Positions 3,215-25,276 of a stretch of 34,661 bases of DNA are shown here, one piece after another. Source of the stretch: a virus (lineage: Duplodnaviria > Heunggongvirae > Uroviricota > Caudoviricetes); the IMG/VR virus record IMGVR_UViG_2531839482_000004, one strand, 5' to 3'. Position numbers and translations under genes: made by a program. Within the stretch, counting starts at the first letter, position 1; every line of letters begins with the position of its first letter. The notes beneath the pieces were generated by a model. It ran no database searches, was not told the origin of the DNA, and worked only from the letters and a program-made list of their open reading frames with translations.

Positions 3215-4297
3215 TTAGAACTGGTAAACCATACCTACAGCAACGATATCATCGGTAGCAACGCCAGATGCTTTCGTGAAATCGCTCTTATCAATCAGGT
3301 TGATTTTGTAGTCAACAAAAGTGGACATATTTTTGTTGAAGTAATAGGTTGCACCTACATCAACATATTCAACCAGGTCCTGATCACCCCAAACACCCAA
3401 GTCTTTTCCTTTAGAATGCAGGTAAGCAACGGATGGACGCAGGCCGAAGTCGAACTGATATTGTGCAACAGCTTCGAAGTTTTGTGCTTTGTTGGCAATA
3501 TGGTTATTACCAAAAACAGTCATGTTCTGGGTTTCAGAATAGGTGGTGGCCAGATAGATGTTGTTCGCATCATATTTCAGACCAGCTGCCCATACTTCAG
3601 CATTTTGACCAGAAGCATTCAGACCGTTGTTACCGTAGATAACCTGATTATTAGTGCGATCAGATTTAGCATAGGTTGCACCCACGCCGAATCCTTCATA
3701 CTCATAAGTAGTTGAGAAACCGAAACCATCGCCATTAGCTTCAGTTACTTCATTTCGGTCATTTTTGCCCTGATACTGAGCTGCAAAGTTCAGGCCATCA
3801 ACCAGACCAAAGAAGTCGTTGTTACGATAAGTTGCAACACCTGTGGTGCGACCAGTCATGAATACATCTGTTTGGGTCCAGGTATCGCCACCGAATTCTG
3901 GCAGAACGTCAGTCCACGCACCGATGTCGTATGCTACACCGTAGTTACGGCCGTAATCGATTGAGCCGTAGTCACCGAATTTCAGGCCTGCAAATGCAAG
4001 ACGGGTTTTGTCTTTGGAGGAACCTTGAGATTCAGCGCGGTTGCCTTTGAATTCATATTCCCACTGACCGAAACCAGTCAGTTGATCGTTGATTTGGGTT
4101 TCACCTTTGAAGCCAAGACGGGCATAAGTAGTATCACCATCATCTGCATCATTAGAGGAGAAGTAGTGCTTAGCATTAACTTTCCCGTACAGATCCAGCT
4201 TGTTACTGTCTTTATTATAAATTTCAGCTGCCTGAGCAGACATCGCCATCAGTACTGATGCAGCTACAGCAGAAATTGCCACTGTTAATTTTTTCAT
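3215..4297 (-). CDS. nmpC: outer membrane porin, OmpC/NmpC family (intact)
   Basis: 360-aa ORF with signal peptide [23 protein letters not shown], porin motifs and C-terminal ...VGMVYQF; opposite strand to the phage late genes, as for nmpC in DLP12. Confidence 0.9.
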
Positions 4298-13270: not shown

Positions 13271-13546
13271 ATGTCGATGTACACAACCGCCCAGCTGCTG
13301 GCGGCAAATGAGCAGAAATTTAAGTTTGATCCGCTGTTTCTGCGTCTCTTTTTCCGTGAGAGCTATCCCTTCACCACGGAGAAAGTCTATCTCTCACAAA
13401 TTCCTGGACTGGTAAACATGGCGCTGTACGTTTCGCCAATTGTTTCCGGTGAGGTTATCCGTTCCCGTGGCGGCTCCACCTCTGAATTTACGCCGGGTTA
13501 TGTCAAGCCGAAGCACTTAGCATGGCTTTCTGAGGCTTTCGTGTAG
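13271..13546 (+). pseudogene. E: major capsid protein gpE, N-terminal fragment (codons 1-82) interrupted by island insertion
   Basis: MSMYTTAQLLAANEQKFKFDPLFLRLFFRESYPF...TPGYVKPKH matches lambda gpE 1-82, then reads into island DNA (LAWLSEAFV*) and stops at 13546. Confidence 0.92.
13506..13515 (+). repeat. attL core AGCCGAAGCA (left island junction inside E)
   Basis: Identical 10-mer occurs at 24486-24495 at the other junction; sequence outside the pair is contiguous lambda E. Confidence 0.75.
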
Positions 13547-13678
13547 TTGCTGGTTTTTACACTTAATCTTTTGATAATAAAGAATAAGTTTATCTGGCGC
13601 TTTCACTGAATTTTCCTCGTTATCTGTGTGTTGCAATCATCTCTGTATTGCAGCTTGTATTGCTTTTTGGGGCTAAAA

Positions 13679-14914
13679 ATGGCTGGCGAGAACAAACTGA
13701 GCGACAAAGCGCTTAAAGGATATCTGGGGAAACCCAGAGAAAAGCAGATCACCATTGCTGATGGAAAGGGGCTTTCTATTCGTGTGAGTACTAAAGGGGC
13801 TGTGAGCTTTGTTTTCTTCTACAGGTTAGCAGGTGGCCGGGCTGCTCCGGTCTGGCTAACGTTGGGTAAATATCCTGATATGTCACTCAAACAGGCAAGG
13901 GAAAAGCGCGACGAGTGCCGTGGTTGGTTGGCTGACAAACGTGATCCGCGTATCCAGATTAAGATTCAGGCTGAAGAACGCTTAAAGCCGGTCACAGTGG
14001 AGGATGCACTAAATTACTGGTATGAAAATTACTGTAAGGTGCGTCGTAAAACTCATGCTGTAACGCTTGGCAGATTTCGAAAGCATATCTTTCCCTATAT
14101 CGGTCATTTGCCCGTAAATGACACTCACCTATATGAATGGCTGGACTGTTTTGACCGAATTAAACGTAATGCACCAGTTATGGCGGCGTATGTTTTTTCT
14201 GACACTAAATTAGCTCTTCGTTTTTGTCGGGTACGCCAGTACGCGACGTGTGATGCTTTAAAGGATTTGCGCATGAGTGATGTGGGGCAGATTGCAGGTA
14301 AGCGGGATCGGGTTCTGGATGAAGCCGAACTGGGCCAGCTCTGGAAGGCAATTTTTGTCGAGCCTGATTTAAAACTAATGTCTGAATACACGCGAAAAAT
14401 GTTTGTGCTTTGTACAGTATTTGGATGTCGAATGAGTGAAGCCCGATTATCTGAATGGAGTGAATGGGATCTCGAAAGTTGGGTTTGGACTGTACCAAAA
14501 GATCACTCAAAAACTGGTGTTGAAATCGTCAGACCAGTACCTGAAATTCTACGACAGTGGGTAACGGATGTTCACGAAGAGACAAAACATACTGGTTATG
14601 TGCTGGGAAGTCTGCGAATTAGAGAAAGCGTAAGCAAGATTGGGGGGAAAATCGGTAAACGTTTGGGCCATGAAAAACAATGGTCACTACACGACCTTAG
14701 AAGAACGCTATCTACTCATCTAAGTGATCTCGGTGTTGAATTTTATGTAGTAGAACAACTGTTAGGCCATGCGCTACCTGGCGTGGCAGGGGTTTACAAC
14801 AGGAGTACGTTTATGGCTAAAAAACTGGATGCTCTGGAACTCTGGACTACATATCTCAATAGCATCGCAGCTGCTGATTCAAAAGTGACAATCCTCAAAC
14901 AAAAGGCTGGTTAA
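13679..14914 (+). CDS. int: tyrosine integrase, P4-type with N-terminal arm-binding domain
   Basis: N-terminus LSDKALKGYLGKPREKQITIADGKGLSIRVS...LGKYPDMSLKQAREKRDE (DUF4102-like); C-terminal catalytic region with HDLRRT and LGH...GVY motifs; first gene inside the left junction. Confidence 0.88.
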   Translation: MAGENKLSDKALKGYLGKPREKQITIADGKGLSIRVSTKGAVSFVFFYRLAGGRAAPVWLTLGKYPDMSLKQAREKRDECRGWLADKRDPRIQIKIQAEERLKPVTVEDALNYWYENYCKVRRKTHAVTLGRFRKHIFPYIGHLPVNDTHLYEWLDCFDRIKRNAPVMAAYVFSDTKLALRFCRVRQYATCDALKDLRMSDVGQIAGKRDRVLDEAELGQLWKAIFVEPDLKLMSEYTRKMFVLCTVFGCRMSEARLSEWSEWDLESWVWTVPKDHSKTGVEIVRPVPEILRQWVTDVHEETKHTGYVLGSLRIRESVSKIGGKIGKRLGHEKQWSLHDLRRTLSTHLSDLGVEFYVVEQLLGHALPGVAGVYNRSTFMAKKLDALELWTTYLNSIAAADSKVTILKQKAG

Positions 14915-14915
14915 C

Positions 14916-15143
14916 ATGAAAAAAATGGCAATTGTTGATAAAAAGGGTCTGGAGTACATTCCTAACATTGACCGAATGATCCGTGAGAAAGAATGTCGGG
15001 AGCTAACCACTCTTGCGAACAGCACACGCTGGAAGCTGGAGAAGGAAGGAAAATTTCCTAAGCGGATCAAGATTGGCGCTACTGCGGTAGCTTATCGTCT
15101 CTCCGAAGTTCAGGCATGGATTAAGGGAGAATGGAGTAATTAA
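14916..15143 (+). CDS. alpA: AlpA-family HTH regulator / excisionase-like protein
   Basis: 75 aa; ATG overlaps int stop; ...IKIGATAVAYRLSEVQAWIKGE resembles the AlpA HTH pattern; position immediately after int as in E. coli PICIs and P4-like elements. Confidence 0.75.
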   Translation: MKKMAIVDKKGLEYIPNIDRMIREKECRELTTLANSTRWKLEKEGKFPKRIKIGATAVAYRLSEVQAWIKGEWSN

Positions 15144-15161
15144 ATAATAAGGTATTTCGAT

Positions 15162-15983
15162 ATGACAATGTGTGTTATTTGGAAGTCAGTTGATGGAACT
15201 ATTTATGCCGCCACAGATTCTCGACTGAGCTTTGAAGAAAAAAAGTTAGATCGTTGCGTTAAAATATCCCGAATCACATGTCTTTTACATGAGCCTAGTG
15301 ATGCAGTAGATACAAGTAAGATACTTGTTGATAAGCGTGAGATTGCTACATTATTCTGTGGAGGCTTTACAAATGCCTATATCATCAAGGAGAGCCTTAC
15401 TGAGATTTTAAATAAAATAGTTCTCATGAGGGAATACTCCGGCGTGCCCTTTTCGGAAATTATAGATATAGCGTTTTCCATTTATGAAGATACATCAAGA
15501 GATATGTTTGCATCATTAATGGACCAACGATTTGGATGTGTTTTTTACATGATAAGTTACTGCCCTGTATATAAGGAAATGCAAGCATTTAAATTTGAAT
15601 TCAAAATAAATGAAAACGGTATTAACTATTATAAATCTAAACTTTTTGAAGATCGTAACTATGAGGTTAATGGAAGTGGGGTGAGGTACTTGGAACAAAA
15701 TCATCGTATTGAAGATCTAGTTAAAGAAGCTTATCAGAAGAATAAATACACACCACTTCTAGATATACTTGAGTCCGTAATTAATGATGACGACTGTGAC
15801 TCTGTTGGAGGTGCAATGCAATACATTTCATGTAATAAAGATAGACTAAAATTGTGTTGTCATATGTTATTTGAAGAAAATAATCATAAGTATATGAAAG
15901 CTGGGGTGGACTTAAATGAACTCAATGAGAAGTTTATACCTTCTGGTTTGTTTTTTGAGACAGATGCAATCATCAAAAGATAA
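15162..15983 (+). CDS. hypothetical protein, AT-rich cargo gene (possible Ntn-hydrolase-like fold)
   Basis: 273-aa ORF with markedly lower GC than flanks; N-terminus MTMCVIWKSVDGTIYAATDSRL loosely resembles the proteasome/HslV-type N-terminal nucleophile region, with Cys where HslV has Thr. Similarity is weak and unverified. Confidence 0.5.
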   Translation: MTMCVIWKSVDGTIYAATDSRLSFEEKKLDRCVKISRITCLLHEPSDAVDTSKILVDKREIATLFCGGFTNAYIIKESLTEILNKIVLMREYSGVPFSEIIDIAFSIYEDTSRDMFASLMDQRFGCVFYMISYCPVYKEMQAFKFEFKINENGINYYKSKLFEDRNYEVNGSGVRYLEQNHRIEDLVKEAYQKNKYTPLLDILESVINDDDCDSVGGAMQYISCNKDRLKLCCHMLFEENNHKYMKAGVDLNELNEKFIPSGLFFETDAIIKR

Positions 15984-16292
15984 ACGATAACCGACTTTGA
16001 TTGTGATAATTTTATCAAGATTATGATGAATGCTGCAGTATATCTAACATGCTGCAGTTAACTCAATTTGTATTATCGCTAATATTTTTAATAACAAGGA
16101 TGTTTATTGCTTTTTTATTTGAGAGTGAACGTCTAACCATTGTTGTTCTTAGTTCTCATGGAGAGATTGGAGCTTAAAATACGCAATGTTTTGAAATCAG
16201 CGCAACTATATTCCGTAATTGTTCTTTGTCGTTCTTGCGTGGCACGGTGATACACCTCTCATGTCGGTTGTTTTTTTGAACGCAGAAACATA

Positions 16293-16320
16293 AAACAAAG
16301 GCGACCGGGATGGTCGCCAG
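16293..16320 (-). terminator. rho-independent terminator of the leftward island operon
   Basis: ggcgaccgggatggtcgcc hairpin; on the minus strand it is followed by tttgtttt, downstream of the 16387 stop. Confidence 0.5.
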
Positions 16321-16386
16321 TGGCATAACACTAAAATTGAGCGTATTCAGAATACCAAGTGTCGGCTGGTGGACAATGGAATCAGT

Positions 16387-16743
16387 TCAATATTTAGGTG
16401 GTTCAACAAGAGCGTTTATCATTGCTCTCAAATTATCGCGAACACTTATCCAAGTCTGTTCTGCTCGTTCTAACTCATTAGTGTACAGCTTTAATGTTTT
16501 ATCTATGCCATATGTGGCTATTAAATTTATAGCTTCTTGTAACTTTTCGGGATTATTCCTTCTTGGGGGAGTGAATATACCGCGGATTTTTCCGGTAATT
16601 AAAGCTTTACGGTGTCTACATAGAATACCTTTACTTCCTGCTGGACAATTACAAGTCATGATTAGCGAGCCAGAATCGTTTGATACAGTGACTATGTATA
16701 CATCCAAACTACTGCTACTTGTTGCGAAGAATTCGTATTTCAT
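16387..16743 (-). CDS. SWIM-type zinc-finger protein, hypothetical
   Basis: 118-aa ORF with CxC-x7-CxH motif (TCNCPAGSKGILCRH); AAGGAG 8 nt upstream of ATG 16743; preferred over the overlapping plus-strand ORF 16310-16750. Confidence 0.6.
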   Translation of the reverse strand: MKYEFFATSSSSLDVYIVTVSNDSGSLIMTCNCPAGSKGILCRHRKALITGKIRGIFTPPRRNNPEKLQEAINLIATYGIDKTLKLYTNELERAEQTWISVRDNLRAMINALVEPPKY

Positions 16744-16770
16744 GTGTTAGCTCCTTGACTTCAATTATTC

Positions 16771-16965
16771 TTATCCTTTTGGTTCAATACCGCGCCGTAG
16801 CAGCTCTTTGCGCCCTAACTCTTTAAGCCAGTTGGCAAGGCTTACCCCATCGTTACTGGCTTCGTTATCAAACTGCTCCTTCAATTCAGGAACTATGCGC
16901 ATATGGAACGGTGGGGCCTTTCCTGTGCCTTTTTGTTTTTTATCGCGCTTAATAACCGTTGACAT
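16771..16965 (-). CDS. small ribbon-helix-helix-like DNA-binding protein (candidate island regulator)
   Basis: 64 aa; ...FHMRIVPELKEQFDNEASNDGVSLANWLKELGRKEL has a beta-strand/helix/helix pattern like Arc/MetJ-type proteins; start codon abuts a palindromic operator-like site. Confidence 0.55.
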   Translation of the reverse strand: MSTVIKRDKKQKGTGKAPPFHMRIVPELKEQFDNEASNDGVSLANWLKELGRKELLRRGIEPKG

Positions 16966-17026
16966 GTGTACACCTATAGCGTTATGTTTTTATTCGATAG
17001 GTGTACACCTTAACATGTGTGCATTT
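16959..17026. promoter_or_regulatory. divergent control region with inverted repeats (operator candidate)
   Basis: GTGTACACCTAT (16966-16977) and its exact reverse complement ATAGGTGTACAC (16997-17008), 19-bp spacer; related ACATGTGT boxes at 16962 and 17014; TTGACA at 16959-16964. Confidence 0.5.
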
Positions 17027-17300
17027 AAAAACGCAACGCCCCGCAGTGCGGGAACACATGCAGGGCGTCTAACCACCAACGATAGCAACAGTATCGAGGT
17101 AGCTATGAGAAATCATCCCACACACCCGCAAGGGCGGGACTCGCACAACCTGAATAAATTCACTTGGCGCTTTATCGCCCTGAGTGCGGCTAAACCGCGC
17201 ATGCTTACCATCGTGGTCACCAGCGAGCAGGAAGACCGCCAGCAATCCCCAACTGGCTGCGTGATGATATTCGCCGCCCGTATTCGTCAGGAGGTGTGCC

Positions 17301-17525
17301 ATGAATGATCTTTATTTTAAAGTGCTGACACATGCTGAAAACGCGCTCGTTTGTGGCAAAAATATGCGAGAAATCTTATCAACCTGGCTTGATGGGACAA
17401 CAAATGCGGAACACGATGAACGGGATGCTAATTTAGCTGGAGCGTTAATTACGTTACTTGATCCTGTCATCAAAGAGCTGGATGAAGCTATAAAAATACA
17501 CGACCAGAGCTATACCGGAGAATAA
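17301..17525 (+). CDS. hypothetical protein
   Basis: 74-aa ORF, AGGAGG 8 nt upstream of ATG; first gene of the rightward operon leading to the primase. Confidence 0.6.
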   Translation: MNDLYFKVLTHAENALVCGKNMREILSTWLDGTTNAEHDERDANLAGALITLLDPVIKELDEAIKIHDQSYTGE

Positions 17526-17528
17526 AAA

Positions 17529-17816
17529 ATGAAAAATAAATTTTCTGGCTTTATTGCCAGCGGTCAAACTCATTCAAAAATCAGCCTTGGGGATATTTTC
17601 AAAGACAGCTATGGCTATCGGGTAAAGATTATTTCGGTTGATGATCGTCGTGTCTCTTATTTGCGTGATGGTTATGATTTTGAATGTGTTATGCCGCGTC
17701 AGCAGTTCGAAAGAGATTTCATTCTGGTAAAAAATTGCAAGACAGATAATCAGAGGCGTGCCGCAGGCTATATCCGTAAAATTCGGGCAATGTTAGTTGC
17801 CGGAGGTAACAAATGA
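17529..17816 (+). CDS. hypothetical protein
   Basis: 95-aa ORF, GGAGA upstream; tightly coupled to the primase gene (ATGA overlap). Confidence 0.6.
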   Translation: MKNKFSGFIASGQTHSKISLGDIFKDSYGYRVKIISVDDRRVSYLRDGYDFECVMPRQQFERDFILVKNCKTDNQRRAAGYIRKIRAMLVAGGNK

Positions 17817-19633
17817 AACGTGCTCCGAACTTAAAATACCAACCGCGCGACAAAATGACGGAAGTCATCATTTTTGCTGGCAGTGATGCCTGGAGCCATG
17901 CAAAAGAATGGAATGAATGGGCAGGTAAGCATATTGCAGCAGATGATACACCACCAGTCATTCTGGGTACGGAACAACTGGAAAACCTGGATGATATGCA
18001 AATTATCGATGAAGGCCGTCATTATGTGCGTGTTTATCGTGCCGGAAAGATTGCAGAGAAAAGTCTGACGAAGGTTGCGACATTACTTGCTATTGCAGGC
18101 GTAAAGGAAGCACGTTGTTACCGTAGCTTTGTTGATCGAGAGCCTGAAGACTGGACTCCGCGCCTTGTCGGCCTAAAAGCTGAAGCGGAGCATGGGGAAA
18201 GTCTGGTGATTGAACTGCCAGTGAAGAAGGCAGAGCGCAAAAATGACGAGCGTGCTTCATCTTTGGCGTTGAATCAGATGGGGGCCAGCCAGCGCGGTGA
18301 AGTTCTCCTTGCACATTACGGCGGTGAACTGGCAATCAATGCCGACTCTGACACCGTTCATCATTACAACGGCGTTGTATGGGAGCCGGTTCAGGATAAA
18401 GAGTTACAGCGTGCTATGGCGCAGATTTTCATTGATGCGGAGATCAGCTATTCGCAGAACGCTATTAAATCGGCGGTAGATACCATGAAGTTAAGTTTGC
18501 CTGTAATGGGGAATACAGCCCGTAACCTGATTGGATTCAGTAACGGGGTATTTGATACCAGAACTGGTAATTTTCGGGAGCATAACAAAAACGACTGGTT
18601 GTTAATTGCCAGTGAATTACCTTTCAGCCCACCAGCAGAGGGGGAAACGCTGGCAACACATGCGCCGAATTTCTGGAAGTGGTTGCGCCGTTCGGTGGCT
18701 GAGAATGACCGCAAGGCAGATCGCGTACTGGCGGCATTATTCATGGTGCTGGCGAACCGGTACGACTGGCAGTTATTCATTGAGGTAACAGGGCCGGGGG
18801 GAAGTGGTAAAAGTGTGATGGCGGAGATTTGCACCATGCTGGCGGGTAAGGCTAATACAGTATCAGCAAGCATGAAGGCGCTGGAAGATGCAAGGGAACG
18901 TGCGTTAGTGGTTGGCTTTTCGCTGATTATCATGCCGGATATGACCCGCTACGCTGGTGATGGGGCAGGGATTAAGGCCATTACAGGCGGTGACAAGGTG
19001 GCAATTGACCCGAAACACAAAGCCCCCTATTCAACGCGTATTCCGGCAGTAGTGCTGGCGGTTAACAATAACGCCATGTCATTCAGTGACCGCAGCGGGG
19101 GGATCTCACGTCGTCGGGTGATATTCAATTTTTCGGAAGTTGTACCGGAGAACGAACGCGATTCGATGCTGGCGGAAAAAATAGAAGGTGAGCTGGCGGT
19201 AGTGATTCGTCATCTGCTTACAAGGTTTGCTGATCAGGACGAAGCCAGACGCCTGTTATATGAGCAGCAGAAATCTGAAGAAGCACTGGCGATAAAGCGA
19301 GAGGGGGATTCGCTGGTGGACTTCTGCGGTTATCTCATGGCATCGGTAATGTGTGATGGCCTGTTAGTGGGTAATGCTGAAATTGTGCCATTCAGCCCAC
19401 GCAGGTATCTCTATCATGCCTATCTGGCTTATATGAGGGCACATGGGTTTGGTAAACCTGTAACACTGACGCGCTTCGGTAAAGATATGCCGGGGGCAAT
19501 GGCGGAATATGGCAGGGGGTATATGAAACGGAAAACGAAGCACGGTTTGCGTTCAAACGTGACACTGACGGAGGAATCAGAAGACTGGATGCCATCATGT
19601 GTATCGGTCACTAATGACGATAGCAAAAATTAA
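17813..19633 (+). CDS. primase/helicase-type replication protein (P4/PICI pri-rep family, D5-like NTPase)
   Basis: 606 aa; Walker A GPGGSGKS; overall architecture like P4-family primase C-terminal/helicase proteins; GGAGG RBS. Confidence 0.8.
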   Translation: MKRAPNLKYQPRDKMTEVIIFAGSDAWSHAKEWNEWAGKHIAADDTPPVILGTEQLENLDDMQIIDEGRHYVRVYRAGKIAEKSLTKVATLLAIAGVKEARCYRSFVDREPEDWTPRLVGLKAEAEHGESLVIELPVKKAERKNDERASSLALNQMGASQRGEVLLAHYGGELAINADSDTVHHYNGVVWEPVQDKELQRAMAQIFIDAEISYSQNAIKSAVDTMKLSLPVMGNTARNLIGFSNGVFDTRTGNFREHNKNDWLLIASELPFSPPAEGETLATHAPNFWKWLRRSVAENDRKADRVLAALFMVLANRYDWQLFIEVTGPGGSGKSVMAEICTMLAGKANTVSASMKALEDARERALVVGFSLIIMPDMTRYAGDGAGIKAITGGDKVAIDPKHKAPYSTRIPAVVLAVNNNAMSFSDRSGGISRRRVIFNFSEVVPENERDSMLAEKIEGELAVVIRHLLTRFADQDEARRLLYEQQKSEEALAIKREGDSLVDFCGYLMASVMCDGLLVGNAEIVPFSPRRYLYHAYLAYMRAHGFGKPVTLTRFGKDMPGAMAEYGRGYMKRKTKHGLRSNVTLTEESEDWMPSCVSVTNDDSKN

Positions 19634-19644
19634 ACTTATGGAAT

Positions 19645-19800
19645 AACTGTTCACCAAACTATTCACCGTTCACCTTTTTGATTATTTATTGAGCTTCAAG
19701 GGTGAACAGTGGTGAACAGTTGGTGAATAGTTTTTGTGAAACTGTTCACCCATTAACATTATGAATTAAAAGAGAAAATATCAAAAGGTGAACAGGTGAA
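19645..19800. repeat. iteron cluster, candidate island origin of replication
   Basis: About nine copies of GGTGAACAG / CTGTTCACC (and GGTGAAT variants) in both orientations around an AT-rich core (19756-19786), immediately downstream of the primase gene. Confidence 0.75.
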
Positions 19801-19846
19801 GGGTTAAAACGCAAAAATTTTAATTTACTGCTGTGAGATAAAGCCT

Positions 19847-20092
19847 ATGACAGCGAAGCACACAAAAAAATCACAATCGCACGCCCTTGATTTGACGGAA
19901 CACTGGTTAAGGGTGTCGATAAAAATCATCGACCGCAACGCCGGGGAAGGATACGCGAAAGCACATCCCGAACTGATTAGCGCATTCATGACAACGGCGG
20001 CTGCAAACTTTGCCACTCTGACCGAACGGGAGATTGCTGAAGCGGAGGAAGTGACAACAATCAATATTAAGTCCGGAGAGCAGGCAGCATGA
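19847..20092 (+). CDS. hypothetical protein
   Basis: 81-aa ORF between the origin and the ssb-like gene; no family recognised. Confidence 0.5.
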   Translation: MTAKHTKKSQSHALDLTEHWLRVSIKIIDRNAGEGYAKAHPELISAFMTTAAANFATLTEREIAEAEEVTTINIKSGEQAA

Positions 20093-20538
20093 CGGCGCAA
20101 ATATCAGTTTACGGGCGGTTGGTGGACGACCCGCAGACAAAACAGACCAGCAAGGGCACCCCCATGACGCTGGCGCGTATGGCGGTATCACTGCCCTGCA
20201 GTCAGTCGGATGACGGTCAGGCGACGATGTGGTTATCTGTCCTGGCGTTTGGCAGACAAGCCGACGCGCTGGCAAAGCATCACAAAGGCGAACTCCTGAG
20301 CGTGGCGGGTAATATGCAGGTGAGCCAGTGGACTGGACAGAACGGTGAAACGCGGCAGGGCTGGCAGGTTATCGCAGACAGCGTAATCAGTGCGCGAACG
20401 GTGCGACCGGGCGGCAAAAAAGGTCAACAGGGTCAGGCTACTGACGCACTGAACAGAGCAAAACAACAGGTAGATCAGCAAGGAAGCCATCCACCAGTGG
20501 GAGATAATGAGCAATGGGGAGATGATATTCCGTTTTAA
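20089..20538 (+). CDS. ssb: single-stranded DNA-binding protein (SSB-like)
   Basis: 149 aa; OB-fold-like N-terminus, Gly/Gln-rich linker, C-terminal acidic tail ...WGDDIPF as in SSB proteins. Confidence 0.75.
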   Translation: MTAQISVYGRLVDDPQTKQTSKGTPMTLARMAVSLPCSQSDDGQATMWLSVLAFGRQADALAKHHKGELLSVAGNMQVSQWTGQNGETRQGWQVIADSVISARTVRPGGKKGQQGQATDALNRAKQQVDQQGSHPPVGDNEQWGDDIPF

Positions 20539-20755
20539 ATATTGCCAATAAAAAAGGCCGGAAAAAAATAAATTTTCCGGCATGCTACATAAATCCCGAC
20601 CAAAGGGAGTGAAGATATTAACACTAATTATCCGCGCTGAAGTTGTTATCCCAAAACTTTATACAACATTGCACTCGGTTGCATGTATTCGCATGACAAA
20701 TATCGGTGATAGCATATATCCACAATTATTTTTAATGAATGCAAAGAGGATGCGT

Positions 20756-21796
20756 ATGGTTGATTTATATTCGCCTACCCAGCTTGTACAGGTGGTTAAT
20801 GCTGTAGATGTACAAAAACAACTAAATGCGTTGTTTACCAGTTTGTTTTTTACTCGCTCGGTAATGTTTGAATCGCGCGATATTATTCTTGATACAATCG
20901 ACGATCCAAATATCCCAATTGCAGCGTTTTGTTCTCCTATGGTGGGTAGTAAAGTTTCACGTGACGAAGGGTACGAATCAAAAACAATTCGTCCAGGCTA
21001 TATGAAGCCGAAAAGCAGCATTGATCCAAATAAGTTAGCTGTGCGCCCTGCTGGTGTATCACCTGAGCAATACAATGCTTTTGGAGCGCGTAATATTAAA
21101 GTTAAACAGGCGATTGTAAATCAGGCTAAATCTATTCGTGCACGTATTGAATGGCTTGCCGTTCAGGCAATCACAACGGGGAAAAATATCATTGAGGGCG
21201 ATGGTATTGAACGTTATGAGCTGGACTGGAATATTAAACCACAAAATATCATCACTCAGTCTGGCGGTGCTGAGTGGTCAGGTAAGGATAAAGAAACTTT
21301 TGATCCAAATGATGATATTGAGAGCTACGCAGAATTTAGTGAGGGCGTCACTAATATCATCATTATGGGCGGTAATGTATGGAAGAAATACCGTTCATTC
21401 AGAGCGATAAAAGAGGCTCTGGATACCCGTCGTGGTTCTAATTCCGAACTGGAAACGGCCCTTAAAGACCTTGGTGATTCGGTGAGTTTTAAAGGGTATA
21501 TGGGCGATGTTGCGATTGTTGTATACAGCGGGCGTTATACCGACGAGGACGGAACTGAAAAACATTTCCTTGATCCTGATTTGATGGTGCTTGGCAATAC
21601 GGCTCTTCAGGGGATTGTCGCCTATGGCGGTATTCAGGATCCGGAGCTAATCCGAATGGGGCTGACTAAAGCCGAACTTGCACCGAAAAACTATATTGTG
21701 CCTGGTGATCCGGCTATTGAATATGTGCAGACACATTCAGCACCACAGCCAATACCGGCCCGCATCAATCGTTTTGTTACCGTTCGCATTGGCTAA
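20756..21796 (+). CDS. island-encoded major capsid protein, divergent paralog of lambda gpE
   Basis: 346 aa; shares RPGYMKPK, NIITQSGGAEWSGKDKETFDPNDDIESYA, ALDTRRGSNSELETALKDLG, AIVVYSG, MVLGNT with helper gpE but is diverged throughout; AGAGGA RBS 6 nt before ATG 20756. Confidence 0.88.
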   Translation: MVDLYSPTQLVQVVNAVDVQKQLNALFTSLFFTRSVMFESRDIILDTIDDPNIPIAAFCSPMVGSKVSRDEGYESKTIRPGYMKPKSSIDPNKLAVRPAGVSPEQYNAFGARNIKVKQAIVNQAKSIRARIEWLAVQAITTGKNIIEGDGIERYELDWNIKPQNIITQSGGAEWSGKDKETFDPNDDIESYAEFSEGVTNIIIMGGNVWKKYRSFRAIKEALDTRRGSNSELETALKDLGDSVSFKGYMGDVAIVVYSGRYTDEDGTEKHFLDPDLMVLGNTALQGIVAYGGIQDPELIRMGLTKAELAPKNYIVPGDPAIEYVQTHSAPQPIPARINRFVTVRIG

Positions 21797-21805
21797 GGGG
21801 GAGCA

Positions 21806-22147
21806 ATGGCTACTCATTACACTGAACTCATGGCTGGCACTGAAGCACTGGTGACTACGCTGGGGATATTTTCAGCTAATAAAGGGGTAATTCCTGCATT
21901 TACGCCACTGATGCAGGAAGATGCAACAGGTGCACTGGTGGTATGGGATGGTTCGAGCGTAGGTAAAGCGGTTTATGTTTCCGCTGTACAAATCGACACC
22001 GCGAAAAAAACACAGGCTCAGGTCTATAAGACAGGTGTCTTAAATGTTGATGCTCTGAACTGGCCTGAGTCTGTAAAAGAACTGTCAGTAAAGATTGCAG
22101 CGTTTGTTGGCTCAGGTATTTCTGTTCAGCCGCTGGCTCGTGTGTAA
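21806..22147 (+). CDS. island-encoded decoration protein, divergent paralog of lambda gpD
   Basis: 113 aa; shares TPLM, LVVWDG, YKTGV, WPE, AAFVGSGISV with gpD; lies downstream of the capsid gene (order E-like then D-like, opposite to lambda). Confidence 0.75.
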   Translation: MATHYTELMAGTEALVTTLGIFSANKGVIPAFTPLMQEDATGALVVWDGSSVGKAVYVSAVQIDTAKKTQAQVYKTGVLNVDALNWPESVKELSVKIAAFVGSGISVQPLARV

Positions 22148-22158
22148 AGGGGGATACA

Positions 22159-22542
22159 ATGCAGAATGATTACAATGACCTTAAGCCAATTGCCGAAATG
22201 ATGTACCCGAATCCAGCTGTAGAGGAATTAAAAGCTATCGCTGACAAAATGTGTTTAAGCGAGCGCCTTGTTGATATGAATCAGGTGATGGAAATTACAA
22301 CCCTGAGTCGGCGTACACTGCTAAACCTTGAGGCTAGTGGAGAGTTCCCGGAGCGTGTGCAGGTTACGGAAGGGCGTAAGGCCTGGTATTTAAGTGAAGT
22401 GATCGACTGGATAAATAATATTCCTCGCGCTTCTGAATATTGCCGCGTACCTGTCCCAAAAAAGCCAGATGCGGCGCTATGCCTCAAGATTGAGCGTGTA
22501 CGCCGCAATGCACGGGATGGTCGCTATAAGCTGATTGGTTGA
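22159..22542 (+). CDS. AlpA/MerR-like HTH protein with N- and C-terminal extensions
   Basis: 127 aa; core MEITTLSRRTLLNLEASGEFPERVQVTEGRKAWYLSEVIDWI fits the AlpA-type HTH pattern. Confidence 0.6.
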   Translation: MQNDYNDLKPIAEMMYPNPAVEELKAIADKMCLSERLVDMNQVMEITTLSRRTLLNLEASGEFPERVQVTEGRKAWYLSEVIDWINNIPRASEYCRVPVPKKPDAALCLKIERVRRNARDGRYKLIG

Positions 22543-22565
22543 TGAAATTAGGGCCCGCTCTGGCT

Positions 22566-22787
22566 GGCGGGTCCTTTCCGGCGATCTGACAGGCTACGGG
22601 GCGTCAGGCGCGCAGTTTTTCGCTATTTGTGAAAATTTTCCTGTTTAAGGCGTTTCCGTTCTTCTTCGCCGTAACTTAATGTTTTTATTAAAAACACCCC
22701 CTAAAAAGAAAGGAAACGACAGGTGCTAAAAACAGGCTTTTTGGCCTCTGTCGTTTCCTTTCTCTGGTTTTGTCCGTGGAATGAACA
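22566..22787 (+). other. island cos site (cosQ and cosB conserved, cosN divergent)
   Basis: Aligns base-for-base with helper cos 7107-7326, but the cosN position reads GGGCGTCAGGCG (helper GGGCGGCGACCT), with further changes just downstream. Confidence 0.8.
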
Positions 22788-22853
22788 ATGGAAGCCAACA
22801 AAAAGCAGCTGGCTGACATTTTCGGTGCGAGTATCCGTACCATTCAGAACTAG
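22788..22853 (+). pseudogene. Nu1-paralog N-terminal segment ending in an in-frame amber codon (codon 22)
   Basis: MEANKKQLADIFGASIRTIQN then TAG where helper Nu1 has TGG (Trp). Confidence 0.7.
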
Positions 22854-22865
22854 CAGGAGCAGGGA

Positions 22866-23339
22866 ATGCCCGTTCTGCGAGGCGGTGGCAAGGGTAATGA
22901 GGTGCTTTATGACTCTGCCGCCGTCATAAAATGGTATGCCGAAAGGGATGCTGAAATTGAGAACGAAAAGCTGCGCCGGGAGGTTGAAGAACTGCGGCAG
23001 GCCAGCGAGGCAGATCTCCTGCCAGGGACTATTGAGTATGAACGCCATCGACTTACGCGTGCGCAGGCCGACGCACAGGAACTGAAGAATGCCAGCGAAA
23101 CAGGTGAGGTAATTGACACTGCATTTGCGACTTATGCTTTGTCGAAATTAACTGGGGAAGTTGGAGCAATCATTGATAGTCTTCCACTTGCGATCTGTCG
23201 ACAGTTTCCTGGCATGGAAAAACGGTATCAGGACTTCATTAAGATGGAGGTCAGTAAAGCATTTATTCGAGCTTACCAGATCTCAGATAACATTCCAGAT
23301 ATGGCTGAAAGGTATATCAAGGATAATCAGCGAAGTTAA
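22866..23339 (+). CDS. N-terminally truncated terminase small-subunit paralog (Nu1 residues 27-end; divergent C-terminal domain)
   Basis: Starts at the codon equivalent to Nu1 Met27, where a GAA->GAG change creates a GGAG Shine-Dalgarno 6 nt upstream; first ~80 aa near-identical to Nu1, last ~75 aa replaced by AT-rich divergent sequence. Confidence 0.7.
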   Translation: MPVLRGGGKGNEVLYDSAAVIKWYAERDAEIENEKLRREVEELRQASEADLLPGTIEYERHRLTRAQADAQELKNASETGEVIDTAFATYALSKLTGEVGAIIDSLPLAICRQFPGMEKRYQDFIKMEVSKAFIRAYQISDNIPDMAERYIKDNQRS

Positions 23340-23445
23340 AACAAATGAAACCATAGGTAGGAAGAGTGCTTAGGTGGTTCTTTGTTGCTTAAAAGTCGCC
23401 AGTAAAACTGGCGATAGATTTTATTTGTCAAAAGCATTTGACCTT

Positions 23446-24351
23446 TTAAGGTAGTGGTACTATGGATATTTTTCTGTCGTTCCCAAATGAACTTTTAAAT
23501 AATTTCGCTCTTGGATACATCTTAACTAGTGATGCGACTTCATCGAACTCGCTGGCATCAAAAAGAGGACCAAGTATTACAGATTTTAACTCAAAAGGGT
23601 GAAATTTTAAGTCGCTATATTGACCAGTGCTATTTGGCCTAGCGTAGGTTGAAATTCTCCACTCTCTTTCATATGCCCATTCTTCTGTTTTTATGAATAT
23701 TATCTCATTATTGATATATTCAATTGACTTATTGTCTGGCATGAAAAGCAACTCGGCCATCCCTTCAGCAGTGTGAGTTAGAGGCATTTCATCTGTGTAT
23801 TTCATAGGTTTGGCTATTAACCAAGCGCTATCCAGAAAGTCTACACAATCAAATTCGATAACTATACCTTTATATTTATCGGCATAGTGATTCCACATAG
23901 GAGTGATTATAGGGCTCTCAGATAAACACAAAATCCTTCTGTTATTAAGCATTCCTCGCCAGACATCTTTCATTTCTTGTATTGCCGCAGGAGCGCCAAT
24001 CCCAACTGGTGGAATGTTTACCATTTCTTGAAATCTTTCAATTAATCCTGCGGGTATGCCTAAAGGAAATGACTTTTGGAAATCACTTAGCATTGTTCTA
24101 ATTCTAGGGTTTAAATTTTGTATGTCTTCTCTGGGGGTAATCAACTCCGCTATTAACTTGCGGGCTAAAGCTTTGCCAATATTAATTTCGTTAATACCAG
24201 GCATAACTTCTCTTGGAACATCAAAAGGGTCATTAAATAGGACCGGAGAACTCCATCTAAGGCTGCATGAATCAAGAACAATTTTCGCGGTATTCAACGA
24301 CATATACTTATAAAATGTTGAGCGTTCATGCATTCTGTTGGGTGAGCGCAT
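23446..24351 (-). CDS. hypothetical protein, DUF2971-like, AT-rich cargo gene
   Basis: 301 aa; N-terminal FYKYMSL...LRWSSPVLFNDPFD and WAYEREWRI motifs as recalled for DUF2971 proteins; low GC; GAGGA RBS; last gene before the right junction. Confidence 0.55.
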   Translation of the reverse strand: MRSPNRMHERSTFYKYMSLNTAKIVLDSCSLRWSSPVLFNDPFDVPREVMPGINEINIGKALARKLIAELITPREDIQNLNPRIRTMLSDFQKSFPLGIPAGLIERFQEMVNIPPVGIGAPAAIQEMKDVWRGMLNNRRILCLSESPIITPMWNHYADKYKGIVIEFDCVDFLDSAWLIAKPMKYTDEMPLTHTAEGMAELLFMPDNKSIEYINNEIIFIKTEEWAYEREWRISTYARPNSTGQYSDLKFHPFELKSVILGPLFDASEFDEVASLVKMYPRAKLFKSSFGNDRKISIVPLP

Positions 24352-24485
24352 AGATTCCTCTTGTTAAATGAGTGATGGTTTTCATCCATGTATTGCACGT
24401 TGTATTGCATTCAAGGATTTTCCATTTCAATTCTATAGCTAAAACGTAATCAAATCATTCACATCCTTTCATATTTGACTCATGT

Positions 24486-24495
24486 AGCCGAAGCA
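24486..24495 (+). repeat. attR core AGCCGAAGCA (right island junction)
   Basis: Identical to 13506-13515; E coding sequence resumes in frame immediately afterwards. Confidence 0.75.
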
Positions 24496-25276
24496 TGAGG
24501 TGAATCCGCAGATGACCCTGCGTCGCCTGCCGGATGAAGATCCGCAGAATCTGGCGGACCCGGCTTACCGCCGCCGTCGCATCATCCTGCAGAACATGCG
24601 TGACGAAGAGCTGGCCATTGCTCAGGTCGAAGAGATGCAGGCAGTTTCTGCCGTGCTCAAGGGCAAATACACCATGACCGGTGAAGCCTTCGATCCGGTT
24701 GAGGTGGATATGGGCCGCAGTGCGGCGAACAACATCACGCAGTCCGGCGGCACGGAGTGGAGCAAGCGTGACAAGTCCACGTATGACCCGACCGACGATA
24801 TCGAAGCCTACGCGCTGAACGCCAGCGGCGTGGTGAATATCATCGTGTTTGATCCGAAAGGCTGGGCGCTGTTCCGTTCCTTCAAAGCCGTCAAGGAGAA
24901 GCTGGATACCCGTCGCGGCTCTAATTCCGAGCTGGAGACAGCGGTAAAAGACCTGGGCGAAGCGGTGTCCTATAAGGGGATGTATGGCGATACGGCGATC
25001 GTCGTGTATTCCGGACAGTACGTGGAAAACGACGTCAAAAAGAACTTCCTGCCGGACAACACGATGGTGCTGGGGAACACTCAGGCACGCGGTCTGCGCA
25101 CCTATGGCTGCATTCAGGATGCGGACGCACAGCGCGAAGGTATTAACGCCTCTGCCCGCTACCCGAAAAACTGGGTGACCACCGGCGATCCGGCGCGTGA
25201 GTTCACCATGATTCAGTCAGCACCGCTGATGCTGCTGGCTGATCCTGATGCGTTCGTGTCCGTACAACTGGCGTAA
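24486..25276 (+). pseudogene. E: major capsid protein gpE, C-terminal fragment (codons ~80-341)
   Basis: ...KHEVNPQMTLRRLPDEDPQNLADPAYRRRRIILQNMRDEE... to ...FVSVQLA matches lambda gpE; preceded in frame by a TAG from island DNA. Confidence 0.92.

Follow-up and report, generated by a model that had tools for sequence, protein, structure and literature searches.

How is a satellite that lies inside the major capsid gene of another phage replicated, and which of the functions needed does it bring along itself? The question is raised by a stretch of 34,661 nucleotides from a tailed-phage record, IMG/VR IMGVR_UViG_2531839482_000004 (the whole stretch is referred to below as the window), in which positions 17813-20538 hold a gene of the kind annotated as 'DNA primase' (pri), a cluster of short repeats (iterons) and a gene for a protein that binds single-stranded DNA (SSB). 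We consider it probable that this region is the replication zone of an Escherichia coli-type phage-inducible chromosomal island (PICI) of the helper-embedded kind, its helper being a lambda-like prophage whose major capsid gene it interrupts, and that it operates as a Pri-iteron-SSB module, most likely with host priming. A preliminary description of the locus had proposed a 'self-contained' replicon; since neither a primase nor a polymerase is recognisable in it, host functions are needed, and that epithet has to be dropped.

Pri shares the helicase and origin-binding domains of P4 alpha, but not its primase region

Pri contains the Pfam domains D5_N (residues 163-292), DUF5906 (326-434) and Pox_D5 (497-592), and a Walker A motif, GPGGSGKS, at residues 327-334 aligns with the same motif in the alpha protein of P4. 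Homology to P4 alpha extends through the helicase and the C-terminal origin-binding domains: Pri is 51% identical to alpha residues 323-771 over 449 residues, and its residues 498-594 match the P4 origin-binding domain (PDB 1KA8) with an E value of 1.7e-24. By analogy with P4 alpha and the 1KA8 structure, Pri would be expected to bind the iterons that lie next to its gene. The earlier assignment of a P4-family primase/helicase is thus borne out for the helicase and origin-binding domains, but not for the primase: the corresponding region of P4 alpha (residues 1-322, with its Cys pair and EGYATA motif) is absent from Pri and gives no alignment with it.

What stands where P4 alpha has its primase is an N-terminal domain of unknown function that spans residues 1 to ~130. 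Residues 1-160 of Pri have no match in Pfam, and the only significant match of the domain in BFVD is an uncharacterised phage protein of 112 amino acids. In an AlphaFold model, residues 1-130 adopt an alternating beta/alpha fold with a predicted local distance difference test score (pLDDT) of ~90, and a TE-IIFAGSDAW-HA motif is invariant in the domain among the E. coli relatives. A profile search with the domain (encoded at 17813-18200) recovered a family of 150 clusters among 1.84 billion representative proteins. Since all ten of the full-length family members that were scanned carry the domain fused N-terminally to a helicase, either of the DUF927 or of the D5_N/DUF5906/Pox_D5 type, the family points to an exchangeable module peculiar to these satellites; a recognised primase domain was found in none of the ten. 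That these proteins are labelled 'DNA primase' goes back to P4 alpha, of which they share the helicase and the DNA-binding parts only.

The origin is an iteron cluster that combines features of P4 ori and crr

The gap between pri and the next gene is assigned as the origin of replication by homology. Its G+C content is 33% (A+T 67%), compared with 44% in the island and 53.5% elsewhere in the window. The exact sequence GGTGAAYAG occurs seven times in the gap and nowhere else in the 34.6-kb window, compared with 0.46 occurrences expected by chance and a maximum of two in 100 shuffled sequences. Two degenerate copies, GTTCACC at 19668-19674 and GGTGAAGGG at 19795-19803, bring the total to nine GGTGAA-core iterons of the TGTTCACC type. 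They span 19647-19803 in the order three reverse, three forward, one reverse and two forward, so that the earlier count of about nine repeats in both orientations around A+T-rich DNA proved accurate. Across 65 distinct origins the iteron columns are 99.5% conserved and the spacers 96.8%, and the iterons are kept even in origins that are only 76% identical overall. No second dense GGTGAA cluster is present in the window. Iterons flanking A+T-rich DNA immediately 3' of pri are the feature described for PICI origins (PMC6092414), and this is the arrangement found here. A literature search for TGTTCACC returned nothing relevant.

The closest parallels outside the PICIs come from P4. The 8-mer listed in the P4 record as 'ori type 1 repeat' is identical to the iteron TGTTCACC, i.e. 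the island uses P4-like iterons. P4 ori is 80% identical to positions 19696-19768 over a 76-column alignment (score 69, compared with at most 34 for shuffled sequence), and its architecture of three direct repeats, one inverted repeat, an A+T-rich spacer and two direct repeats is shared by the window origin up to 19803. A unit of P4 crr is 83% identical to positions 19745-19800 over 58 nt (score 58, compared with at most 26 when shuffled), and it is crr that in P4 occupies the position directly after the alpha gene. While ori and crr are 4.5 kb apart in P4, the window has one compact cluster, and on these alignments the PICI origin would seem to be related to P4 ori and crr together, in a compact form. 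The two elements differ further in their gene content: the P4 record has no SSB gene, and none of P4 sid, psu, delta and epsilon is annotated in the island, the genes of which are instead homologues of lambda E, D and Nu1.

The same layout in the model PICI EcCICFT073

EcCICFT073 serves as the model for Gram-negative PICIs (Fillol-Salom et al. 2018, PMC6092414). In NC_004431 (~1377930-1388700) it presents DUF4222, pri, a 288-bp iteron gap, an 85-amino-acid open reading frame (ORF) and an SSB ending in DDIPF, followed by capsid and decoration genes; as in the window, the origin lies immediately 3' of pri and consists of bidirectional iterons around A+T-rich DNA. Together with the similarity to P4 alpha, this substantiates the PICI-type pri/ori layout that the preliminary description had recognised. 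EcCICFT073 Pri is 43% identical to the window Pri over the full length (584-606 residues), N-terminal domain included; the small ORFs share 83% and the SSBs 68% identity. The differences are that EcCICFT073 is integrated in the chromosome and the window island in a prophage, and that EcCICFT073, unlike the window, has a PerC gene after ssb. Its origin (L005, 28997-29284) uses the iteron TGTCTACC/GGTAGACAG, whereas the window uses TGTTCACC, and the C-terminal domain of EcCICFT073 Pri has diverged in line with its different iteron. The differing iterons imply that the two elements also differ in origin specificity.

The functional data come from this relative: the pri-ori segment of EcCICFT073 kept a temperature-sensitive plasmid at 44 C, while rep or ori mutants failed to do so (PMC6092414). 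By analogy, pri and the origin of the window should be able to drive replication.

SSB and a small conserved protein are standard parts of the module

The SSB-like gene with a DDIPF tail was correctly identified from the start. Its product passes the cut-offs of both Pfam SSB (2.7e-16; 60.0 bits, cut-off 26) and TIGR00621 (67.3 bits, cut-off 53.95), and its C-terminus reads WGDDIPF, a tip that is kept in the EcCICFT073 SSB. With E. coli-type SSB it shares the OB-fold domain and the acidic DDIPF tip; to E. coli SSB itself (PDB 1EQQ) it is distant (E value 7.8e-4), being a protein of 149 amino acids with a linker of ~35. PADLOC assigned it to no defence system, and a literature search on the role of SSB in PICIs gave nothing relevant among the top matches. 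Between the origin and ssb lies orf81, the structure model of which is a helical hairpin of low confidence (pLDDT 65; predicted template modelling score, pTM, 0.38). This ORF (19847-20092) had been overlooked in the preliminary description, as had the reduced number of iterons and the embedding in a prophage capsid gene.

The origin region of the window is present in 686 of 5426 complete E. coli genomes. Four sampled copies are chromosomal PICIs, located at tRNA-Gly, yicC (twice) and tRNA-Pro, and all of them have the order pri, origin, SSB, with the SSB a pseudogene in one. In IMG/VR the origin is carried by 106 contigs, and the neighbour counts that follow are limited to contigs whose flanks are long enough. 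Upstream of it there is Pri in 87/88, preceded by its conserved partner DUF4222 in 74/88 (DUF4222 is likewise found in EcCICFT073 and other PICIs); downstream, orf81 is found in 81/95 and the SSB in 78/95. The capsid and decoration genes accompany the origin in only 43 of 79 contigs. The SSB had been taken for an addition to the PICI plan. As EcCICFT073 shows the same succession of DUF4222, pri, ori, small ORF and SSB, the SSB is a standard PICI part, and the tRNA-Gly, yicC and tRNA-Pro islands agree with this.

The module belongs to a helper-embedded PICI in capsid gene E

The window consists of a lambda-like prophage's late region, in which genes for lysozyme, Nu1, terminase A, portal, D, FI and tape measure are found. 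An island of ~11 kb (13516-24485) splits gene E, which encodes the major capsid protein of this prophage, at 13515/24486. The 10-mer AGCCGAAGCA is the longest word common to both island junctions, and joining the junctions of E across it regains an E-like ORF of 341 amino acids. The split E, its lambda-like flanks (Nu1, A, portal, D, FI and tape measure) and the common orientation on the plus strand are those of the helper-embedded type of PICI (HE-PICI). The unidirectional int-alpA-...-pri organisation, with no phage tail or lysis genes in the island, is that of a PICI. The full gene order is integrase, AlpA, a 273-amino-acid ORF, a SWIM protein (-), a 64-amino-acid ORF (-), an Icd-like ORF, a 74-amino-acid ORF, DUF4222, Pri, origin, orf81, SSB, E-like capsid, D-like decoration, a second AlpA-like helix-turn-helix protein, a Nu1-like terS and a DUF2971 protein (-).

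The founding helper-embedded PICI is Eco567.11capE (11capE below) of E. coli NRG857c (Tommasini, Mageeney, Williams 2023, PMC10111431). The same study mapped 491 further HE-PICIs to 14 late-gene sites, including E_Phage_cap_E_80, and describes the PICI replication zone as 'Primase, SSB and DUF5906'. The insertion site of the window island is one of these 14: its AGCCGAAGCA block and attL flank correspond to E_Phage_cap_E_80 entries in the supplement of PMC10111431. A satellite within a prophage capsid gene was considered as a novelty and rejected as such, this configuration having been published there.

11capE shares with the window island the capsid E site, the attL flank, the size of ~11 kb and the order int-alpA...DUF4222-pri-ori-orf81-ssb-capsid-decoration-helix-turn-helix. 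The Pri proteins are identical at 604 of 606 residues, and the origins are the same save for three substitutions and a 74-bp deletion in the window. The att block is AACCCAAGCA in 11capE, while AGCCGAAGCA of the window is a variant listed for other members. The accessory genes also differ: 11capE carries genes of the HEPN and DUF262 types and, of terS, no more than a short remnant, whereas the window has the 273-amino-acid ORF, the SWIM and DUF2971 genes and a full-length terS-like gene that carries a nonsense codon. At least 80% of the island is present in at least 18 complete E. coli genomes. The nearest relative, in NZ_CP062853, shows 99.6% Megablast identity over the whole island, the best value obtained, and its integrase is one residue apart.

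Alternative readings and the state of this copy

Could Pri be a true primase-helicase after all, with its ~130-residue N-terminal domain a minimal, divergent TOPRIM that allows self-priming as in P4? A TOPRIM active site needs an invariant Glu and a DxD motif. Across 23 diverse members of the domain family all acidic residues stay below 90% conservation (E17 reaches 70-90%); since the positions that are conserved, A4, P5, G23, A26, W27, P48, L56, G78, A93 and an Arg near 121, hold no such residues, the Glu...DxD metal site is missing. The domain has no zinc ribbon, hhalign paired its family with P4 alpha 1-322 at a probability of 0.3%, Foldseek found nothing significant in the PDB (best E value 0.11), and Pfam, as noted above, is silent. 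Judged from these comparisons a catalytic primase in Pri is unlikely, and the self-priming reading is no more credible; a literature search on whether PICI Pri has primase activity gave no relevant result. Less probable still is that the iteron cluster is an accessory cis element of the kind of P4 crr, or serves regulation or handcuffing, with initiation elsewhere in the island. That P4 has crr directly downstream of alpha, with its origin some 4.5 kb away, and that part of the cluster resembles a crr unit speak for this idea; yet the window holds no second iteron cluster to which initiation could be assigned, the same cluster contains the P4 ori-like segment with its repeat architecture, and in EcCICFT073 a plasmid was not maintained without the region 3' of pri, this region and the rep gene together being enough for it.

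A weightier alternative is that the replicon of this particular copy is decaying and no longer functional, the island now being a passenger copied with prophage and chromosome. The window origin is 74 bp shorter than every relative aligned with it (NZ_CP062853, 11capE, four chromosomal PICIs and the 65 distinct IMG/VR origins). The deletion runs exactly between two direct copies of AACTGTTCACC, and its junction lies within the copy at 19645-19655. Several observations count against a working replicon here. The 74 bp comprised three iterons and a 35-nt A+T-rich spacer; 82 of 105 related origins have 12 iteron cores and none has fewer than 10, as compared with nine in the window. The junction was found neither in the 5426 complete E. 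coli genomes, where the best match is in two pieces, nor in viral, metagenome and species-representative genome collections, while the undeleted form is present in 106 viral contigs. The terS-like gene, which is intact in NZ_CP062853, carries a nonsense codon here (W22*, TGG to TAG at 22851-22853), so that the element may be in decay. With 74 bp of the usual 12-iteron origin gone, the nine-iteron origin may fire less well or not at all. On the other hand, the replication ORFs are all intact, with 0-2 amino-acid changes from NZ_CP062853, and since the retained origin keeps the entire P4-ori-like segment and the crr-like unit, its function may survive in this copy. As the island differs from that of NZ_CP062853 by only 44 substitutions in 11 kb apart from the deletion, any decay is very recent. 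We regard serious impairment of this origin as possible but somewhat doubtful, and give the same weight to the wider reading of the island as a mere passenger.

Features of the locus and neighbouring genes

The coordinates of the features are collected in Table 1. The divergent island capsid and decoration genes (20756..22147) form a 'late zone' outside the replicon. In the terS-like gene, an ATG at codon 27 could permit re-initiation without the N-terminal helix-turn-helix.

Table 1. Coordinates of the replication module, the island ends and further features of the window
Feature	Coordinates	Strand	Remarks
Capsid gene E, left part	13271-13515	+	encodes E residues 1-82
attL identity block AGCCGAAGCA	13506..13515	+	left island end, inside E
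Island integrase, tyrosine recombinase	13679..14914	+	Pfam Arm-DNA-bind_3 3.6e-19, Phage_integrase 9.4e-17
AlpA-family regulator/excisionase	14916..15143	+	Pfam Phage_AlpA 6e-15
DUF4222 protein	17529..17816	+	Pfam DUF4222 3.4e-22; stop overlaps pri start
Pri, 606 aa	17813..19633	+	P4-alpha-like origin-binding superfamily 3 (SF3) helicase
Origin of replication (by homology)	19634..19846	.	213-bp gap directly after pri
Iterons 1-3	19647-55, 19659-67, 19668-74	-	reverse
Iterons 4-6	19701-09, 19711-19, 19722-30	+	forward
Iterons 7-9	19742-50 (-), 19787-95 (+), 19795-803 (+)		
A+T-rich spacers	19675-19699 and 19751-19786		80% and ~76% A+T
orf81, 81 aa	19847..20092	+	conserved, function unknown; phrog_1231 2.2e-48; stop overlaps ssb start
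SSB, 149 aa	20089..20538	+	OB fold, short linker, C-terminal DDIPF tip
Island E-like capsid gene	20756-21796	+	Pfam Phage_cap_E 1.8e-41
Island D-like decoration gene	21806-22147	+	Pfam HDPD 4.4e-15
Nu1/terS-like gene	22788..23339	+	Pfam Phage_Nu1 3.2e-64 from residue 27 onward
attR identity block AGCCGAAGCA	24486..24495	+	right island end
Capsid gene E, right part	24486-25276	+	E residues ~83 to 341

Among the remaining genes, the 273-amino-acid ORF (15162-15983, +) has phrog_16034 (function unknown) as its sole match; Pfam, NCBIfam and PADLOC all gave none. A SWIM zinc-finger protein of 118 amino acids (16387-16743, -) lies in the zone that holds Bro/AntA-type genes in other PICIs. The Icd-like ORF (16895-17308, +; NF033153, 8.7e-17) overlaps the 5' end of the divergent 64-amino-acid ORF, and a sigma-70-like promoter site matching at 10/12 positions lies at 16959-16988, within the region of this overlap. 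A scan of 16700-20800 for promoters and terminators found sites in numbers no higher than in shuffled sequence. Rfam, applied to the window at gathering thresholds and to 15900-17900 at E<=1, detected no C4/isrK-type immunity RNA and nothing else credible, nor did it detect a P4 CI/seqA-type RNA around 16895-17308. At its right end the island encodes a DUF2971 protein (23446-24351, -) that matches the PADLOC candidate defence family PDC-S31 (E value 2.9e-32); because 11capE has its HEPN and DUF262 genes there, this position looks like a variable accessory or defence slot. Outside the island, a gene for an OmpC-like porin (3215-4297, -; Pfam Porin_1, 3.5e-152) lies upstream of the lysis genes of the prophage, an arrangement shared with the CFT073 icd prophage.

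Discussion

The module that we have delineated, in which Pri, an adjacent iteron origin and an SSB would act together with the priming machinery of the host, could work as follows. Pri, a shortened relative of P4 alpha, would recognise the TGTTCACC iterons just downstream of its own gene through its C-terminal winged-helix domain, assemble as an SF3 hexameric helicase and open an adjacent A+T-rich spacer. The island SSB would then coat the unwound strands, its DDIPF tip probably recruiting host replisome proteins, while primers would most likely be supplied by the host primase DnaG and synthesis by host Pol III. Both the role of the SSB and the host priming are inferred; host priming is the most likely arrangement because Pri is without a recognisable primase domain, and it agrees with the EcCICFT073 pri-ori segment working in plain E. 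coli DH5alpha. A bolder generalisation would be that the so-called primases of E. coli-type PICIs lack primase function altogether, and that the ~130-amino-acid domain acts as an adaptor which, together with the SSB and the 81-amino-acid protein, recruits host or helper priming to an SF3 helicase for which E. coli offers no natural partner. We offer this only tentatively and think it rather unlikely.

Autonomous replication of the module is probable by homology, and plausible because EcCICFT073 pri-ori maintains a plasmid. After induction of the near-identical 11capE, however, the attP:attB ratio was ~1 in two replicates and 1.6-1.9 in a third (PMC10111431), which makes the case for strong autonomous amplification a weak one. 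The integrated island is also copied passively with its helper; in 11capE, excision was late and occurred after the composite had already replicated (PMC10111431).

The finding mainly confirms a known module, because the element type, its embedded position and the replication zone (primase family, SSB and an origin 3' of pri) are all published. What this copy adds is a natural comparison of a nine-iteron with a 12-iteron origin, and an example of how iteron-mediated deletion can trim such origins. The 'DNA primase' annotation of PICI proteins raises the question of how a replicon built around an SF3 helicase is primed in E. coli. Finally, the origins of the window island and of EcCICFT073 form a natural pair for the analysis of origin specificity and, possibly, of incompatibility between co-resident satellites.

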